A stretch of DNA of 64,000 nt from Myxococcota bacterium. Its GTDB lineage: Bacteria; Myxococcota_A; Polyangia; Nannocystales; Nannocystaceae. The stretch lies in NCBI GenBank assembly GCA_039028615.1, contig JBCCHT010000052.1:28821-92820 (forward strand), read 5' to 3'. The notes below the pieces were generated by a model. It saw only the letters and a list, made by a program, of their open reading frames with translations. It was not told the origin of the DNA and ran no database searches. This document shows positions 55,995 through 64,000 of the stretch, piece by piece (position 1 is the stretch's first letter; each line of letters begins with the position of its first letter). A program made the position numbers and the translations under genes.

Positions 55995-58874
55995 ATGCCC
56001 AACCCTCACGATCCAACCCAGCCGACCGAGGAGGCCGACCCGTCGGGGGCCGATTCCCAGATTGGGCACAGCGCGACGCTGGCCGACGACGGCCTCGACG
56101 ACGGACCCAACCGCACCCGGGGTCCCAAACTGGGCGACCGGATCGGGCACTACCACGTGCTCGAGGAGATCGGGTCCGGGGCGATGGGCACGGTCATCGA
56201 GGCCTACGACGAGCAGTTGGATCGACGCGTGGCCCTCAAGCTGCTGCACGACCGTCGGCGCAGCCGTTCGAATAGCGGCCGGCAGGAGCGACGCCTGCTG
56301 CGAGAGGCCCAGGCCCTCGCCCGGCTCTCGCACCCCAACGTGGTGCAGGTCTACGAGATCGGCGAGGCGGCGGGCGGCCTGTTCATCGCCATGGAGCTGA
56401 TCCTCGGCCAGACCCTCGAGGAGTGGCAAAAAGAAGATCGGACCTGGCGTGAAGTCGTGGACGTCTACATCCAAGCGGGCCGAGGCCTCGCGGGCGCGCA
56501 TGCCCAGGGCCTGATCCATCGCGACTTCAAGCCCAGCAACTGCATCATCGACGACGCCGGCCAGGTCAAGGTCCTGGACTTCGGCCTCGCCCGCGAGTCG
56601 GGTGACTCCTCGGAGGTCGACGACACCCTCAGCTCGACCGACCATTCCGCCATCCGTGATCTGCTGGCCGACGGCGGCTCGAGCGAGAGCAACCGCGTCT
56701 TCTCCGAGGCCCTGACCCGCACGGGCGCGCTGCTCGGGACCCCGGCCTATATGGCGCCCGAGCAATTGCGAGGCGGCCAGGTCGCGGCGCATAGCGATCA
56801 GTTCAACTTCTGCGTCGCGCTCTACGAGGGCCTGTACGGCTGCCGCCCCTTCCCGCACGACTCCATCGGCGAGCTCGTCAACGCGGTGCTCGGCGGCAAC
56901 CTCCGCTCGCCTCCGCCCGGCTCCAAGGTCCCGGGCTCGCTGTTCCACGTGCTGCGTCGCGGGCTGCAGTGCCGTCCTCGAGATCGCTGGCCTTCCATGG
57001 AGGAGCTGCTCGAGCGCCTCGAAGGGCTGCGCTCGCGACGAACCCAGAGCCGCTGGCTGGTGGCCATGGGCCTGGCCGCGGCCGCCACCGGGGGCGTGCT
57101 GTGGGGGCAGGCCGACACCACCCCGCCCTGTCGCGGGGCCGAGGCGCGCATGGGTGAAGTATGGGGACAGCCCCACGCCCAGATCATCGACGAAGCCCTG
57201 CTGGATACCGGCGTGCCCTATGCCCACGCCACCAGCATCCGGGTCCGCGACCTGCTCGATACCTACGCCAAGAGCTGGATCGCGCTGCATACCGAGACCT
57301 GCGAGGCCACGGCCGTGCACGAGCAGCAGTCGGCGGAGGTCCTCGACCTGCGCATGCGCTGCCTCGAGAGCCGACGCACCGCGATGCTGCGGACGATCGA
57401 GCTGCTCGAGGACCCCGATGCCTCCGTCGTCGAGAACGCGGTGGCCATGGCGTCTTCGCTGCCTCGCCTGGAGCTGTGCAACGACGTCGCCGCGCTCGAA
57501 GCCGCGGTGCCGCCCGCCGACGATCCCGCCGTCGCGACCGAGGTCGAGGCGCTGCGCGACCAGCTGGCTCGCGCCACCGCGCTGGCCAAGGCTCATCACG
57601 ACGAAGAGATGCTGGTGGTGGTGGAGCCGGTGCTCGAGCGCGCGCTGGTCTTGGGCTACACCCCGCTCATCGCCGAAGCCCGCCTCGGCCGGGGCATCGC
57701 CCTCAAGCTGCTGGGTCGCTACCCCGAGGCCCGCGTCGAGCTGCTCGCGGCCTTCGAAAAGGGCGTGGAGCTCGGGCACGACGAGATTGCGATGCACGCC
57801 AGCCAGGAGCTGACCTTCCTCGTCGGGCACGAGCTCGCGCAGCGCGAGGCGGGCCTGGCCTGGGGCTCCACGGCCGAGGCCTTTGCCCGTCGACTCGATC
57901 CCCAGGGCCCTCAGCACGCCAAGGCCCTGCGCAGCGTGGCGATCGTGCAGATCCAGATGGGCCAGATCGACGCCGCCGCGCAGCGCTTCGAGCAGGCGCT
58001 GCACATCCTCGAGAGCAACGCCGACACCGAGAGCCTGGCGCTGGCGCGGGCCCTGAGCGACATGGGCAACCTCAGCCTCGCCCAGAGCGACCTCGATGCA
58101 GCGCTCGACTACTACCACCGCGCCAACGCTCTGCGGCTCGACAAGCTCGGCAAGGGGCACCCGCAGCTGAGCCTCGGGGAGCTGAACCTCGGGCACGTGT
58201 ACGAAGCGAAGGACAACCTCGAGGCGGCCGCAGCCAGCTACGAGCGCGCGCTGAGCCTGCGCACCGCCGCCCACGGACCCGTGCACCCCGACACGGCGAT
58301 CGCCATGAACAACCTGGCCGTCGTCTACGACAAGCAAGGCAAGCCCGACCTCGCGCTCGAGCTGCACCGCCGCGCGCTGGACATGCGGGTGCAGACCCTC
58401 GGGCCCGACCACCTGTACGTCGCGCACTCCAACGCGAACATCGGGCTCGCGCTGCGGGCCAAGGGCGAGCACGAAGAGGCGCTGCCCTACTTCCAGCGCG
58501 CCTACGAGATCGCGGAGACGATCGGCGGCCGCGAGATCGAGCATGCGCTATTCGAGCTGAGCGAGGCGGAGCTGCGCCTCGGTCGAGTCGATGCCGCCCG
58601 AGCCAAGCGCGAGCGCTACCTCGAGCTCATCCAGGCCCACGAAGACGACCGCTCCAGCTCGCTGGCCTTCGCCGAGTTCGGCCTCGCTCGGGTGCAGTGG
58701 ATCCAGGGCGAGCACGAGGCCGCCACCGCGCTACTCGAGCGAGCCGTGACGCACTCCGAGGCCAGCGAAGATCACCGGGCCCCCGCGCTGCTGAGGGACA
58801 TCGCCGCCTGGAAGGCCGAGAACCTTCAGCCCGAAGACTCGGGCTCGTCGCCGTCGACCGCACGCAAGCCCTGA
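55995..58874 (+). CDS. Ser/Thr protein kinase with TM helix and TPR repeats
   Basis: GSGAMG, VALK, HRDFKPSN, DFGLAR, GTPAYMAPEQ; TPR units; start could be 55956. Confidence 0.93.
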   Translation: MPNPHDPTQPTEEADPSGADSQIGHSATLADDGLDDGPNRTRGPKLGDRIGHYHVLEEIGSGAMGTVIEAYDEQLDRRVALKLLHDRRRSRSNSGRQERRLLREAQALARLSHPNVVQVYEIGEAAGGLFIAMELILGQTLEEWQKEDRTWREVVDVYIQAGRGLAGAHAQGLIHRDFKPSNCIIDDAGQVKVLDFGLARESGDSSEVDDTLSSTDHSAIRDLLADGGSSESNRVFSEALTRTGALLGTPAYMAPEQLRGGQVAAHSDQFNFCVALYEGLYGCRPFPHDSIGELVNAVLGGNLRSPPPGSKVPGSLFHVLRRGLQCRPRDRWPSMEELLERLEGLRSRRTQSRWLVAMGLAAAATGGVLWGQADTTPPCRGAEARMGEVWGQPHAQIIDEALLDTGVPYAHATSIRVRDLLDTYAKSWIALHTETCEATAVHEQQSAEVLDLRMRCLESRRTAMLRTIELLEDPDASVVENAVAMASSLPRLELCNDVAALEAAVPPADDPAVATEVEALRDQLARATALAKAHHDEEMLVVVEPVLERALVLGYTPLIAEARLGRGIALKLLGRYPEARVELLAAFEKGVELGHDEIAMHASQELTFLVGHELAQREAGLAWGSTAEAFARRLDPQGPQHAKALRSVAIVQIQMGQIDAAAQRFEQALHILESNADTESLALARALSDMGNLSLAQSDLDAALDYYHRANALRLDKLGKGHPQLSLGELNLGHVYEAKDNLEAAAASYERALSLRTAAHGPVHPDTAIAMNNLAVVYDKQGKPDLALELHRRALDMRVQTLGPDHLYVAHSNANIGLALRAKGEHEEALPYFQRAYEIAETIGGREIEHALFELSEAELRLGRVDAARAKRERYLELIQAHEDDRSSSLAFAEFGLARVQWIQGEHEAATALLERAVTHSEASEDHRAPALLRDIAAWKAENLQPEDSGSSPSTARKP

Positions 58875-60103
58875 GGCTCCCGGTCCATTCGTCGCGCGCC
58901 CCAGATCAAGGCGAGGCCGCCGAGCGCGACCGGGATCGCGGTCAGCTCGATGGCCAGGGCCGGCCCGCGAGCGTCGCTCACCGCTCCCATCAAGGGCGGA
59001 GAGATGGCATCGCCGAGCACGTGGATGATGAACACGTTCACCGCCATCGCCCGCGCGCGCATCGTGGCCGGCACGCTGGCCATGAGCGCCGCGTTGAGCG
59101 GCCCCGTGTTGAGGAACAGCAGCAGCTCCGCCCCGAACGCGACGATGAGCGTGCTGGTGGCGTCGCCCTGCGCCGTCATCAGCAAGGCGAAGGGTGCCCC
59201 GAGCAGCAGTCCGTAGCCGCTGACGCGGAAGTACCCGCCCGCGCCTTTCGCCTGCGCTCTGTCGCCGAGCCAACCGCCCACCAAGGTCCCGATGAGCCCG
59301 CCGAGCACGGTCACCGCACCGAAGCCCGTGCCCGCCTCGCCCGTGCTCAGATCGTGCGCCCGTGCCAGATAGGTCGGCATCCAGGCGCCCAGCCCTCCGA
59401 CGGTGAAGGTCATCAGGGTCATGCCCACCGTGTTGATCCGCCACGCCGGGCTGCGGAAGAGCCGACGCACCGTCGACATCAACGGGACGTCGGTGGTCGG
59501 CAACGGCTCCTCGTCGAGGGCTCCGCGCTGGGGCTCCGGCAGCAACAGTACTATTGCGGCCATGATGAGACCGGGGACGCCCGCGACGTAGAACGCCATG
59601 CGCCAGCCGTGGGCATCCGCCATCGCTCCGCCCACCAAGAACCCGAGCGCGCTGCCCATCGGCGTCGCCAGGTAGAAGTACGCGAGCTTGCGGCCGCGCT
59701 CCTGCGGGCGAAACAGGTCGGAGATCACCGCCGGGGCCACCGCCGCGTAGCCGGCTTCGCCCACGCCCACCAACGCCCGCATGGTGAACAGCGTCGCGTA
59801 GTCCTCGGCCATGCCCGAGCCCATCGTGGCCAGGCTCCACAACACCACGGAGATCGCCGTGATCTTCTTGCGGGAGACTCGATCGCCCAGCTGCCCAAGC
59901 CACGGCGAAGCGAGGGCGTACACCAGAATGAACGCGGTGCCGAGGAAGCCCGATTCGCTGTCGAGCAGCCCCAGTTCCTTGCTCATCGGCTCGAGAACCG
60001 CGAACAGGACGTAGCGATCGAGATAGTTGACGAAGTTGATCGCGGTGAAGACCGCGAGGATCGAAAGCGCGATTCGTCGCGTCGGCGCAGAGCCCTCGAG
60101 CAC
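58826..60103 (-). CDS. MFS transporter, spinster-like
   Basis: INFVNYLDRY, LGDRVSRK, RALVGVGEA.Y...AP.VISDLF, IHVLGDAISP; 12 TM. Confidence 0.87.
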   Translation of the reverse strand: MLEGSAPTRRIALSILAVFTAINFVNYLDRYVLFAVLEPMSKELGLLDSESGFLGTAFILVYALASPWLGQLGDRVSRKKITAISVVLWSLATMGSGMAEDYATLFTMRALVGVGEAGYAAVAPAVISDLFRPQERGRKLAYFYLATPMGSALGFLVGGAMADAHGWRMAFYVAGVPGLIMAAIVLLLPEPQRGALDEEPLPTTDVPLMSTVRRLFRSPAWRINTVGMTLMTFTVGGLGAWMPTYLARAHDLSTGEAGTGFGAVTVLGGLIGTLVGGWLGDRAQAKGAGGYFRVSGYGLLLGAPFALLMTAQGDATSTLIVAFGAELLLFLNTGPLNAALMASVPATMRARAMAVNVFIIHVLGDAISPPLMGAVSDARGPALAIELTAIPVALGGLALIWGARRMDREPQGLRAVDGDEPESSG

Positions 60104-60283
60104 GGCGCATGCTAGCCCGGCTCAGGACGTAAAGGATGGCGGCTCTCCCGCCACCGAAATTCCGGCGCACACCAAAATGTGCCGCAGGATCTGGGAAAAG
60201 CAGGCAAATCTGAGTATATGTGCAGTATCGCGGAAGTCGGGGACCGCAGAAAATCTGCTCAACCGATCCAAGGCGAATCGACT

Positions 60284-60311
60284 CGCGTAACTAACTACGC
60301 GCACGGACGAT
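60284..60311 (+). promoter_or_regulatory. Candidate promoter/operator of the RiPP operon
   Basis: Inverted repeat CGCGTA-N6-TACGCG (60284-60301) overlapping GTAACT-N15-CGAT, an ECF-like -35/-10 arrangement about 50 bp upstream of the start. Confidence 0.35.
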
Positions 60312-60361
60312 TACTCAGCCGTCCCACCGGATACGGAACGAACTCAGGAGAAGAAGAACAA

Positions 60362-60640
60362 ATGGCAAACCTCAAGGACATCGCTGCCACTCTCGCGATT
60401 CTCGGCTCTGGCGCACTCGTCATGACCGGCTGCAACAAGGACGCCCCGGCGACCGAGGTTCCGGCCGACGCTGACGCTGCTGGTGACGCGGCCGAGGGTT
60501 CCTGTGGCGGCGACAAGGCCGAAGGCTCCTGCGGCGGCGACAAGGCCGAGGGCTCCTGCGGCGGCGACAAGGCCGAGGGCGAGGGCGAAGGCTCCTGCTC
60601 GGCCGAGGGTGGCGAGGGCGAAGGCTCCTGCGGCGCCTGA
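60362..60640 (+). CDS. MNIO RiPP precursor (HvfA/oxazolin-like) with lipoprotein signal and five EGSC[G/S] cores
   Basis: AGGAG upstream; MANLKDIAATLAILGSGALVMTG-C; EGSCGGDKA x3, EGSCS, EGSCGA-stop; immediately upstream of DUF692. Confidence 0.88.
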   Translation: MANLKDIAATLAILGSGALVMTGCNKDAPATEVPADADAAGDAAEGSCGGDKAEGSCGGDKAEGSCGGDKAEGEGEGSCSAEGGEGEGSCGA

Positions 60641-60668
60641 TCCCCGACGCTCAACACACACAACAGTT

Positions 60669-60751
60669 CGTGGCTTGCCTCCGGTAGGCCACGGCGGGTG
60701 AAAGCCCGACGAGACCCGTGGTCGAGATCCTCTTCTCCCCACGGGTTTCGT
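60669..60751 (+). other. Three consecutive stem-loops between the precursor and DUF692 genes
   Basis: Hairpins at 60669-60693, 60695-60708 (GAAA loop) and 60709-60751 (13-bp stem). Confidence 0.6.
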
Positions 60752-60783
60752 GCATGTACTACGCTCCAGCAGATCGCTTCACG

Positions 60784-61683
60784 ATGAGCATGCTCCACCA
60801 GATTCAGACCACGCACGCCGTCCCTACGGGGATCGGCCTCGGCTTGCGTGCGAACTTCATCGCCAAGGTGGTGGCGGGTGAGGCCGACGGAGTGGCGGCC
60901 TTCCTCGAGCTGTCCCCGGAAAACTACATGCACCGTGGAGGCCGCAGCCCCGCCCGACTCGGGCAGCTCGCCGAGCGCTTCCCCATCATCACCCACGGCC
61001 TGATGATGTCGCTGGGCAGCGCCGATCCCTTCGACGACGAGTACTTCGGCTTCCTCCGCGAGTTCCTCGATCGCTACGACCCCCCGTGGCACTCGGACCA
61101 CGTGTGCTGGAGCGGCCAGGGCGGAGCCCTGCTGCACGACTTGCTGCCCCTGCCCTTCACCAGCGCCGTGGCCACGCGCATCGCCGGTCGGGTCATGGAG
61201 GCGCGCGACCGACTCGAGCGCCCCATGGCGATCGAGAACATCAGCTGGTACCTGCGCCTGGGCAAGGGCGAGTACGATGAGCCCCAGTTCATCACCGAGA
61301 TCGCCGAGCGGGCCGACTGCGGACTGCTGCTCGACGTCAACAACATCTTCGTCAACGCGCAGAACCACGGCTTCGACCCCTACCGCTGGCTCGAGCACAT
61401 TCCCCTCGACCGCGTGCTCCAGCTGCACGTGGCCGGGCACGAGCCCTGGGACGAGACCCTGATCGTCGACACCCACGGCGAGACGGTGCGCGACGAGGTC
61501 TACGAGCTCATGGCCTGGGTCATCGAGCGCATCGGGCCGCGGCCCGTCTTGCTCGAGCGCGACAGCAACATCCCGCCGTTCTCCGAGCTACTCGACGAGA
61601 TGCGGCGGCTCGACGCCACCTACCAGGCCGCGGTGCAGCGCTGGCAGGTCGCGACGGCCACGGAGGTGCAGCATGAAGTCTGA
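60784..61683 (+). CDS. Multinuclear non-heme iron oxidase (DUF692/MNIO, HvfB/BufB-like)
   Basis: GIGLGLR, ELSPENY, HGL..SLG, SDHVCW, DLLPLP, IENI, LLDVNNIFV, LHVAGH, DTHG, LLERD. Confidence 0.93.
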   Translation: MSMLHQIQTTHAVPTGIGLGLRANFIAKVVAGEADGVAAFLELSPENYMHRGGRSPARLGQLAERFPIITHGLMMSLGSADPFDDEYFGFLREFLDRYDPPWHSDHVCWSGQGGALLHDLLPLPFTSAVATRIAGRVMEARDRLERPMAIENISWYLRLGKGEYDEPQFITEIAERADCGLLLDVNNIFVNAQNHGFDPYRWLEHIPLDRVLQLHVAGHEPWDETLIVDTHGETVRDEVYELMAWVIERIGPRPVLLERDSNIPPFSELLDEMRRLDATYQAAVQRWQVATATEVQHEV

Positions 61684-62503
61684 CGCCCCCGCCATCGAGC
61701 GCCCCACCGCCGCCCTCGATGCCATGATTCGCGAGCTCGGGGCCCAGGCCCGCATGGAGTCCGACTACGGTGCCTACCTCAAAGAGCACGGCGTCGAGGG
61801 CGAGGACCTCGACGCGATGCTCGAGGTGGGGACCGAGCGCATGCTCGTGTACCGGCAGCTCGTGCACAATCGCATTCGCAACGCCACCCGGAGCTTCATC
61901 GGGCGCACCTTCGCTCGGCTGGGCAAGGAGCGATGCCGCCGGGACGTGGCCACGTTCATGGACGACAGGGCCCCGCGTTCGCCCTATCTGCGGGACGTAC
62001 CGGCCGAGTTCGTCGAGTGGGCGTGCCCGCGCTGGGAGGCGGACCCGGAGGTGCCCGACTACATCCCCGATCTGGCGCGACACGAGCTGCTCAGCATCGA
62101 TGTTCGCAACGACTGGCGGGGGGGCGAGGAGCCGACGGGGGTGGCCTTGGCGTTGGACCGGCCACTTCGTTTCGATGGGGCGGCTCGGTTGGTGCAATAC
62201 AGCCACGCGGTGCATCGGCTGCCGAAATCCACCGAGGATCGTACGGAGCCCGAGGCAGAGGAAACGCGGCTGCTGGTCTATCGCGATGCGGAGCACGACC
62301 CGCGCTATCTGTCGCTCACGCCGTTTGCGGCGGCGTTGCTCGAGGCGCTGATGAACGATGGGCTCGCGGTCCAGCCCGCACTGCAGGCGGCGTGTGAGTC
62401 GCTTGGGCAGGTGCTGGATGATGCGGCGCTGGGTTCTGCGGCGCAGTTGTTTGCCGACCTCGGCGAGCGGGGGGTGTGCCTCGGCGCGGAGCCGTCGGCC
62501 TAG
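61673..62503 (+). CDS. MNIO partner protein (DUF2063 / HvfC-BufC-like, peptide recognition)
   Basis: R..VYR.LV.N, P.SPYL.DVP.EF, DLARHE, LLVYRD; overlaps the DUF692 stop; GGAGG RBS. Confidence 0.85.
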   Translation: MKSDAPAIERPTAALDAMIRELGAQARMESDYGAYLKEHGVEGEDLDAMLEVGTERMLVYRQLVHNRIRNATRSFIGRTFARLGKERCRRDVATFMDDRAPRSPYLRDVPAEFVEWACPRWEADPEVPDYIPDLARHELLSIDVRNDWRGGEEPTGVALALDRPLRFDGAARLVQYSHAVHRLPKSTEDRTEPEAEETRLLVYRDAEHDPRYLSLTPFAAALLEALMNDGLAVQPALQAACESLGQVLDDAALGSAAQLFADLGERGVCLGAEPSA

Positions 62504-62567
62504 CTAGGCGATGGGAGACCGGTTGGACGCGTGAGTCCGGTTTGCTTTGCGGGGCGCTTGGGGAATT

Positions 62568-63163
62568 CTTCGAACGGGCGGCTCGCCTGTTTAACGGCTG
62601 GAACCCTCCCCGGACGTGCTCGGCGGCCGTCACACCCGGGTGTTTCTCGACCGCTGGCAGCGGCCGCCTCCGCGCGACCGGGCCCCCTCCATCCGACGCG
62701 GCTTCGCTTCAGCCCTCCCCGCGCTCGGTCTCCCGTTCGGACGGCGGCGTGGGCCCTGCTCCGGGGGAGGCTTGCGTGCTTGGAGGTTGAAACGGATCGA
62801 TGCCTGGCCAGGGGGTGCGGGCTTCGAGATGCGCTTGCGACGTGTTCGAACCGTCGGCTCGCCTGTTGACGGCTGGAACCCTCCCCGGACGTGCTCGGCG
62901 GCCGTGATAGCTGAGTGTTTCTCCACGATTGTCGGCGGCCGCCTCCGCGCGACCGGGCCCCCTCCATCCTACGCGGCTTCGCTTCAGCCCTCCCCGCACT
63001 CGGTCTCCCGTTCGGACGATGGCGTGGGCCCTGCTCAGTTGGAATCTGGCTTGCTTCGAGGTCGGCCGGTTGGCGGTTGGCGGTTGGCGGAGCATGCGAG
63101 GGCCTCGAGGGGCAATGGAGAGTGTTCGAACAACTGGCTCGCCTGTTGATGACTGGAGCCCTC
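62568..63163 (+). repeat. Repeat family A: two ~276-280 bp direct units plus the head of a third
   Basis: Head GGCTCGCCTGTTGACGGCTGGAACCCTCCCCGGACGTGCTCGG at about 62580, 62856 and (partial) 63136. Confidence 0.9.
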
Positions 63164-63198
63164 TTCAATGGGGTCGACGGTAGTTGCGATGGAGTGGG

Positions 63199-63718
63199 GT
63201 TTGCCCCGGGGTCGTGCGCCCAAAGGGGGAACGAACTGGAGGGTGGGCCTCTGTGTTGTTGCCCTGCACCCTCGAAGAGACCGAGCCCAACTGCGTCGCA
63301 TCGGTGGCGGACTGTATTCCTCGGTGGCTGCCGATTCACTGCGGGCGGCGACCTCCGGGGCCCCACCAGTTCTAGGCCACGGACTCGAGCGTTGCCCTTC
63401 GCAGGAAGGACCCACTCGCAAGACATTTGAAGCGCTACCGAGCACGTCCGGAGAGGCGTTTGCCCCGGGGTCGTGCGCCCAAAGGGGGAACGAACTGGAG
63501 GGTGGGCCTCTGTGTTGTTGCCCTGCACCCTCGAAGAGACTGAGCCCAACTGCGTCGCATCGGTGGCGGACTGTATTCCTCGGCGGCTGCCGATTCACTG
63601 CGGGCGGCGACCTCCGGGGCACCACCAGTTCCAGGCCACGGACTCGAGCGTTGCACTTCGCAGGAAGGACCCACTCGCAAGACATTTGAAGCGCTACCGA
63701 GCACCTCCGGAGAGGCGT
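63199..63718. repeat. Repeat family B: tandem duplication of a 259-bp unit
   Basis: GTTTGCCCCGGGGTCGTGCGCCCAAAGGGGG begins at 63199 and 63458; six substitutions seen by eye. Confidence 0.92.
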
Positions 63719-64000
63719 CCAGCTGTCAGCAGGCGAGCCAGTTGTTCGACCACTCTCCGCTGCCGTTCGAGGCCAACCGCCAACCGCCAAACGGGCGACC
63801 TCCAAGCAAGCCAGAACTCCACCCGGGCAGGCCCCACACCACCGTCCGAACGGGAGACTGAGTGCGGGGAGGGCTGAAGCGAAGCCGCGTAGGATGGAGG
63901 GGGCCCGGTCGCGCGGAGGCGGCCGCCGACAATCGTCGAGAAACACCCGAGTATCACGGCCGCCGAGCACGTCCGGGGAGGGTTCCAGCCGTCAACAGGC
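63697..64000 (-). repeat. Inverted copy of repeat family A (runs off the window end)
   Basis: 63961-64000 is the exact reverse complement of 62861-62900; 63718-63960 mirrors 62900-63157 with substitutions. Confidence 0.92.

Follow-up and report, generated by a model that had tools for sequence, protein, structure and literature searches.

A Nannocystaceae gene trio for a lipoprotein precursor and an MNIO–PME1 enzyme pair, a candidate lipid-tethered RiPP of the captophorin kind

We describe here a three-gene unit in a 64,000 nt stretch of DNA (hereafter the window; contig JBCCHT010000052.1, positions 28,821–92,820 of the forward strand, assembly GCA_039028615.1) from a myxococcotal bacterium of the family Nannocystaceae, and document its genes, their order and conservation, the lipobox signature of the precursor and the clade of the enzyme. 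The unit (60362..62503, plus strand) consists of a gene for a small lipoprotein precursor followed by those for an MNIO (DUF692) enzyme and its PME1 partner. By analogy with the NedABC system (Chen et al., 2026, PMC13056109), it is moderately probable that the whole chain holds, i.e., that the unit makes a peptide synthesized on ribosomes and modified after translation (RiPP) of the DAG-RiPP class and of the captophorin (oxazolin/EGKCG-like) kind, which would work as a lipid-tethered thiooxazole copper buffer. Taking the parts separately, lipidation of the precursor at Cys24 is highly probable, modification of its core Cys residues is very likely, 5-thiooxazole (5TO) is the likely product, and copper would probably be its main job. 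Statements about published systems refer to the parts of the cited papers covered by our literature search.

The precursor gene (60362..60640, 92 aa) is preceded by an AGGAG ribosome-binding site (60346..60350), with similar purine runs before the homologous starts, and is followed by the genes for the MNIO (60784..61683, 299 aa; PF05114, E 1.7e-94) and the partner (61673..62503, 276 aa), whose start overlaps the MNIO stop by 11 nt. The partner matches DUF2063 (34.9 bits, cut-off 27.2) and NGO1945_C (E 3.3e-16). This is the gene content of captophorin clusters, namely an MNIO, an adjacent PME1 (DUF2063 plus RRE) and a Cys-rich precursor, and both the sequence and the Pfam matches bear out the order given in a preliminary description made from the letters alone. 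The MNIO start was placed at 60784, the Met that close homologues also use; a longer frame from a GTG at 60718 was dropped, since homologues use the shorter Met and this GTG falls inside a set of hairpins, as was a longer precursor frame from a GTG at 60179, since homologues begin at the shorter Met.

The precursor starts with a predicted type II signal peptide and lipobox (60362..60433; Cys24, 60431–60433), with residues 7–21 uncharged and of mean hydropathy 2.1. Its core region (60494..60637) holds the five Cys motifs listed in the preliminary description, with Cys48, Cys57 and Cys66 in EGSCG (three EGSCGGDKA repeats), Cys79 in EGSCS and Cys90 in the terminal EGSCGA; each is, by analogy with the captophorin literature, a predicted −4 Da 5TO site. 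The chain is also strongly acidic, as had been stated, the mature 69 aa containing 17 Asp/Glu, four Lys and no His. A protein search with the precursor, signal included, gave 308 matches, and the following counts refer to the 120 that were listed, chosen by likeness to the query; the few named by organism among them are from Nannocystales, Myxococcales or Deltaproteobacteria. A PROSITE-type lipoprotein rule is passed by the window precursor and by 120/120 homologues, vs. 667 of 9,142 crudely called genes of the genome, in agreement with the lipobox proposed earlier. By this rule, a signal peptidase II (SPII)-type signal with a lipobox Cys lies next to a RiPP enzyme, as in DAG-RiPP genes. In all 120, the Cys is situated 18–20 residues after the leader anchor and has Gly or Ala before it. 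The family signal and lipobox were also present in all 14 cleanly parsed loci of an independent set of 18 picked by MNIO likeness (two were misparsed, one had no adjacent precursor and one was at a contig end). Past the lipobox there is Lys at +3 (115/120) and Asp/Glu at +4 (104/120), with a variable +2, recalling the Bacteroidetes 'KDD' surface signal mentioned by Chen et al. (PMC13056109).

In the core motifs, 385 of the 459 core Cys in the homologues are preceded by Ser, 37 by His and 17 by Lys, with Ala also occurring there, whereas Glu/Asp occupies position −3 in 458; Ser follows the Cys in 131. EGKCG is absent from the 25 commonest core motifs of the family and from the window precursor, and the mature chains are net negative in 119/120. 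The preliminary description presented Ser in place of Lys as a variant; Ser does dominate here, but it is not unique, because the precursor beside the N. gonorrhoeae MNIO contains one EGSCG and one QGSCG together with four EGKCG. A profile built from 60 members found the precursor in 24/24 genomes of the same family and in 0/16 of other families in the class; in a scan of the phylum it appeared in 4 of 251 genomes, these being our own, a second member of its family and two genomes outside it with weak matches. The named loci are mostly from Nannocystaceae, including cultured Nannocystis and Paraliomyxa, although this sample and the genome set probably overlap and kin are not independent. Matches in the ESM Atlas were confined to Myxococcota clusters, and the model (pLDDT 0.36) is uninformative. 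Lipoproteins with EKSCG repeats occur in other families of the phylum (L128 in genome G143, L027 in G027).

The MNIO carries conserved residues H71, H106, E151, D184, N187, H215, D229, H231, E258 and D260, and its His/Glu/Asp motifs align with those of 3BWW, which we take to be metal ligands; the metal-site residues and the catalytic Asp are intact. Asp260 was matched to Asp249 of FonB by motif, and this is backed by the Asp present there in most Buf2 enzymes according to Gadgil et al. (10.1101/2025.11.18.689057). In a midpoint-rooted tree of 37 rows (two of 39 were dropped, a long one having misrooted the 39-row tree), the single and fused Nannocystaceae enzymes form one clade on a long branch (support 100/99). 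A 96/94 branch places this clade and three EGKCG/AKCG-type references on one side and the bufferin enzymes on the other, so that the enzyme groups with the EGKCG (Lys-Cys) type. Of the bufferin features, a DUF2282 or BufA2 precursor is absent and the BufB cut-off is missed.

The same three-gene order is present at 32 of 35 named loci with a His-free precursor, which argues that the locus is not a chance arrangement; the other three are a contig end, a divergent copy and a long outlier. The copies next to an MNIO retain two to six motif-bound Cys. The remaining 20 of the 55 named loci have a precursor with an [ED]GHC core and two His (His type). None of them has an MNIO nearby, in flanks that extend at least 2.1 kb upstream and 3.8 kb downstream, and in 13 of the 20 a VWA lipoprotein lies opposite. 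Our genome contains one copy of each type, the His-free one in the window and the His-type one at C54:5702–5998, and two more stand-alone relatives (C17:1581–1970 and C6:27822–28259). It also codes for a fused MNIO-DUF2063-RRE (MNIO-PME1) protein of 571 aa (C13:91452–93167), without an adjacent precursor and behind a YceI-like lipoprotein gene; similar long fused frames exist in many relatives, in some of them beside a C6-like precursor. In genome G008 the enzyme has no adjacent precursor and the sole profile match is 14 kb away. Two genomes of one genus (G009 and G024) have only the fused enzyme of this MNIO clade, the stand-alone MNIO being absent, and in both an acidic lipoprotein with the family signal has lost all core Cys (L051 and L053, at 1503). 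This joint loss, a single event, is consistent with the core Cys being kept for the enzyme; persistence of the Cys-less copies is a hint that the acidic chain may have a job of its own.

Upstream of the precursor gene there is a conserved motif, GATCC-N16-CGTAAC-N16-CGATT (60265..60312, plus strand), that may represent one or two overlapping promoters for extracytoplasmic function (ECF) sigma factors. Allowing N16/17 in its second spacer and ending in CGAT, it precedes 16/34 His-free and 0/20 His-type precursors, with 0.0 expected from resampled sequence, a count made on the same sequences in which the motif was spotted by eye; a sigma-70-like box is found instead in 8/20 His-type loci, and a scan of the window locus for one was negative. 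The second half of the motif is similar to GTAACC-N16-CGAA, the SigF box driving DUF692 operons in Caulobacter (PMC3511200), where SigF-driven bufferin operons are induced by copper (Leprevost, 2024, PMC11626156). A widened form of the motif, adopted after a match in the bufferin locus of contig C22 had been noticed, occurs in 34 of the 6,901 upstream regions of the genome, vs. 9.7 ± 3.0 in shuffles, implying that about 10 of the 34 are chance matches. Four precede MNIO-linked genes: the window precursor, the C17 paralogue, the gene before the fused enzyme and a gene in the C22 bufferin locus. The first half alone (GATCC-N16/17-CGTAA) gave three upstream matches genome-wide, vs. 1.2 expected, and no regulon.

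In the mechanism that we propose, transcription would be under ECF control during envelope or metal stress, and hairpins behind the precursor gene would allow the precursor to be made in excess over the enzymes. In the cytoplasm, the MNIO–PME1 pair would carry out a four-electron oxidation of every core Cys (−4 Da each, up to −20 Da) to 5TO, sparing Cys24; Sec, Lgt, LspA and probably Lnt would export the peptide, attach diacylglycerol to Cys24 and remove its signal. This would leave a 69-residue acidic, unstructured chain, tethered to a membrane, with thiooxazole thiols that capture excess Cu(I)/Cu(II). This reading is supported because the NedABC and DybAH systems, demonstrated in E. coli, have the same gene order, with the lipobox Cys of DybA spared by the enzyme (PMC13056109), and because all characterised MNIO-PME1 pairs make 5TO and bind Cu (Gadgil et al.). 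It also gains support from the position of the enzyme clade on the EGKCG side of the 96/94 branch together with the unbroken lipobox rule, from the absence of the stand-alone MNIO where the lipoprotein lacks core Cys, and from the SigF-like upstream box, given that SigF drives copper-induced bufferin operons.

Several observations weigh against it. The window precursor matches no Pfam or NCBIfam model, and of 60 family members 13 weakly match the HvfA-family model NF050137, with E values of 1 or lower (0.0045 for the best). The MNIO misses the NCBIfam cut-offs of both BufB (292.9 of 310) and HvfB (283.2 of 360), and the partner that of HvfC (109.9 bits, cut-off 142). The MNIO has Arg22-Ala23 and Asp260-Ser261 where EGKCG-type enzymes have Arg-Arg and Asp-Phe; by motif mapping, the second Arg occurs in 0/32 and the Phe in 0/30 scored enzymes of the clade, vs. 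both in 3/3 EGKCG/AKCG references. Thus, of the Lys-Cys (oxazolin/Buf_EGKCG) features, the EGKCG repeats, the HvfA/HvfB/HvfC cut-offs and the Arg-Arg plus Phe residues are all absent. The tree depends on few references, three EGKCG/AKCG-type enzymes of which two are near-identical and of odd make-up. Whether 5TO is the sole PME1-MNIO product was left open in the captophorin paper (PMC13097082), and the captophorin text of Gadgil et al. reports no test of Ser before or after the core Cys. No copper gene was syntenic with the precursor loci in these partly annotated clusters, the genes behind the GTAAC motif are mixed in kind, and no NrsF anti-sigma factor was found in our genome (96.7% complete), leaving a true SigF/NrsF circuit unsupported.

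The near-identical signal peptide of the stand-alone His-bearing paralogue suggests that modification could act in trans, and the stand-alone paralogues, the fused enzyme without a precursor and the separated pair of G008 make this plausible; Antoine (2025, PMC12452194) had already raised the idea of a single enzyme pair acting on several unlinked precursors. An extension of this idea, which we regard as tentative and rather doubtful, is a dispersed network in Nannocystaceae, in which one MNIO-PME1 pair and one fused enzyme would modify several stand-alone lipoproteins (His-bearing, Lys-rich or acidic) in trans, the conserved signal peptide doubling as the RiPP leader and being masked by PME1 until Cys conversion. 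The signals of 14 enzyme-anchored loci are 64–95% identical to that of the window, the enzymes 58–82%, the signal equalling or exceeding the enzyme in 12; by the same comparison, the VWA lipoprotein signal is 25% identical, vs. 65% for the whole protein, and the signals of His-type precursors 49% (ungapped). A complex predicted for PME1 and precursor residues 1–36 scored 0.57, compared with 0.03 for the best of three controls; the mark for such scores was reached by 116/157 solved and 2/215 mismatched pairs, with only 18 solved pairs and both mismatches at or below 0.60. The runs shared at least 44% of contacts and the partner pLDDT was at least 55; the prediction came with no interface, and part of the score may stem from resemblance to RRE-leader complexes already solved. 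This lends weak support to PME1 binding the signal peptide. The Cys-less copies, which keep 19/22 and 17/22 signal residues (hand count), weaken the notion that reading by PME1 is the sole reason for signal conservation, and Buf1 was modified without its signal on overexpression (Leprevost, 2024, PMC11626156), which counts against the signal as leader. If the network were true, the envelope would be coated with mixed His/thiooxazole metal sites, and Nannocystaceae would provide naturally occurring cases for testing how precursors with a signal are kept from being exported. In any case, the stand-alone paralogues make two published speculations testable (Antoine, 2025): the signal peptide may be bound by PME1, and a single pair may serve unlinked precursors.

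Among the rival explanations, we think it unlikely that the lipidated, thiooxazole-modified chain serves mainly as an envelope, thiol or oxidative buffer of a general kind, or for binding another soft metal, rather than for copper. Its presence in all 24 same-family genomes, from varied sources, resembles that of a core gene, and no NrsF was found; the genes behind the GTAAC motif include glutathione-transferase-like and peroxiredoxin-like proteins (labels by reading the sequence), and Antoine et al. (PMC12452194) expect roles beyond copper. However, every tested EGKCG-type product binds Cu (10.1101/2025.11.18.689057; PMC12538549), genus-wide conservation is equally true of the Cu-binding Microbulbifer cluster (PMC12538549), and the motif list includes the chance matches estimated above.

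It is improbable that the Ser-Cys enzyme clade makes something other than 5TO, e.g., through the Ser hydroxyl trapping a thioaldehyde intermediate, as the prevalence of Ser before the core Cys, the two pocket residues changed clade-wide and the long 100/99 branch could suggest. In FonB, Arg15/Arg16 are present, Asp249 is the base and Phe250 contacts Lys3/Gly5 of the substrate, but the R16A, F250A and F250D variants still form 5TO, and FonBC accepts Ala, Thr or Arg for the Lys before Cys (10.1101/2025.11.18.689057). A small residue before the Cys therefore need not block the reaction and, with the catalytic Asp kept and Lys, His and Ala also preceding Cys within the family, the same chemistry is the default for the clade.

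Quite improbable is that the acidic tethered chain works unmodified, as a cation-binding or structural envelope lipoprotein, with modification an add-on or partial. The Cys-less copies of G009 and G024, the His-type paralogues with their own His ligands and the prevailing net negative charge would fit such a role, but the Cys-less case is one event in one genus and nearly all His-free copies immediately precede an MNIO and keep their motif-bound Cys. Finally, a soluble periplasmic captophorin, released through signal peptidase I cleavage or protease shedding, can hardly be expected: the window box, MTGC, is outside the strict form [LVI][ASTVI][GAS]C, which 49/120 homologues have, and Met at −3 places 57/120 outside it, but the lipobox Cys is invariant in position, with Gly/Ala at −1, and outside any core motif.

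Between the precursor and MNIO genes lie three adjacent hairpins (60668..60751, plus strand; −59.1 kcal/mol, z −4.5, 0/200 shuffles equally stable), where no U-run terminator was called; they are probably a transcript stabiliser or attenuator that would raise precursor over enzyme. Divergently transcribed upstream is a gene for an MFS transporter (58826..60103, minus strand; MFS_1, 4.3e-55). A related transporter is found within 4 kb upstream in 20/35 His-free loci, directly divergent in 16, making it often syntenic. As the preliminary description had noted, no DoxX gene follows the operon: past 62503 the window contains nothing but repeats, its end coinciding with that of the contig, and the four DoxX matches of the genome are all on other contigs. 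This absence is unremarkable because Buf1 does without DoxX (Leprevost, 2024, PMC11626156). The repeat region (62566–64000) contains direct and inverted copies of a 197 nt unit, of which 21 contigs carry 64 copies longer than 120 nt, 28 of them close to a contig end, and a 259 nt tandem pair found only there.

The genome contains further MNIO loci. Two are true Buf2 loci, with BufA2 and BufB over their cut-offs and lipoprotein-like precursors (C22:25517–28269, L124; C25:48545–50674, L125); in the former, a lipoprotein with two CxxCH motifs separates the enzyme from the precursor, and the latter has a doubled core. At C1:206110–208700 (L126), a lipoprotein-like frame with AGCPT/GGCPT repeats precedes an MNIO and partner and then a cytochrome P460-family lipoprotein, a candidate DAG-RiPP with Pro after Cys. 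At C24:7977–11258, a lipoprotein-like frame ending in CPACGRG lies about 1.8 kb before an MNIO of divergent sequence and a small downstream protein, resembling the DybA/ChrA type. A divergent MNIO-like gene (C17:19521–22809) is clustered with a 72 aa leader-like frame and further RiPP-type genes.

The closest known system is NedABC. NedA of Neisseria dentiae is an SPII lipoprotein with three EGKCG, isolated triacylated and at −12 Da, and Chen et al. (2026, PMC13056109), who named the class DAG-RiPPs, proposed copper sequestration at the membrane and noted that some bufferins and oxazolins carry SPII signals. The preliminary description knew of no characterised example of a lipidated and MNIO-modified peptide; NedA is one, which largely refutes that claim by the standard set there, and, the DAG-RiPP idea being published, the locus adds breadth rather than a new principle. 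Among the papers listed by our literature searches, no description of an EGSCG-type or Nannocystaceae MNIO RiPP family was found, and unreported in them are the Nannocystaceae lineage, the Ser-rich cores, the enzyme clade without second Arg and Phe, and the stand-alone His paralogue. Precursors from cultured genomes may already be listed in the datasets of the captophorin and DAG-RiPP papers, and the 276 aa partner from Plesiocystis pacifica modelled by Antoine et al. (PMC12452194) may be an orthologue. We would thus be dealing with a family-wide, unnamed DAG-RiPP lineage missed by current precursor models, in which substrate and enzyme pocket depart together from the EGKCG group, providing a clean test of FonB specificity rules.

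The window system shares with NedA/NedBC the SPII lipoprotein precursor, the repeated EGxCG cores, the MNIO with partner and, by prediction, the spared lipobox Cys and the role as membrane-tethered copper chelator; it differs in Ser for Lys in most cores, the acidic chain, the separate enzyme clade, the family-wide presence and the stand-alone His-bearing paralogue. With the oxazolin (HvfABC), fontiphorin (FonABC), gonophorin (NgoABC) and bulbicupramide (MmrABC) systems it has in common the precursor-MNIO-PME1 order, the E-G/A-x-C-G repeat and sister enzymes, and the fon cluster likewise lacks DoxX (10.1101/2025.11.18.689057). MNIO-PME1 products have been unified as 5TO captophorins (Gadgil et al., 10.1101/2025.11.18.689057; PMC13097082), and the oxazolin structure has been reassigned (Manley et al., 10.64898/2026.06.05.730506). 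However, descriptions of these Lys-Cys captophorins assign their precursors secretion signals instead of lipoboxes. In place of the Arg-Arg and Glu-Arg-Asp-Phe of their enzymes, the Nannocystaceae clade has Arg-Ala/Gly/Ser and Glu-Arg-Asp-Ser/Thr/Asn/Glu, and, unlike theirs, the window-family cores are mostly nine residues apart and unpaired. Likeness to Buf1 and Buf2 (PMC11626156, PMC12452194) extends to MNIO-PME1 chemistry, Sec export, the SigF-like box and the lipoprotein signals predicted on about 16% of Buf2 bufferins (Antoine, 2025, PMC12452194); bufferin cores, in contrast, are folded, disulfide-containing and of other families, whereas the window precursor is a low-complexity repeat, its enzyme type belongs to another clade, and its genome yielded no SigF/NrsF pair.

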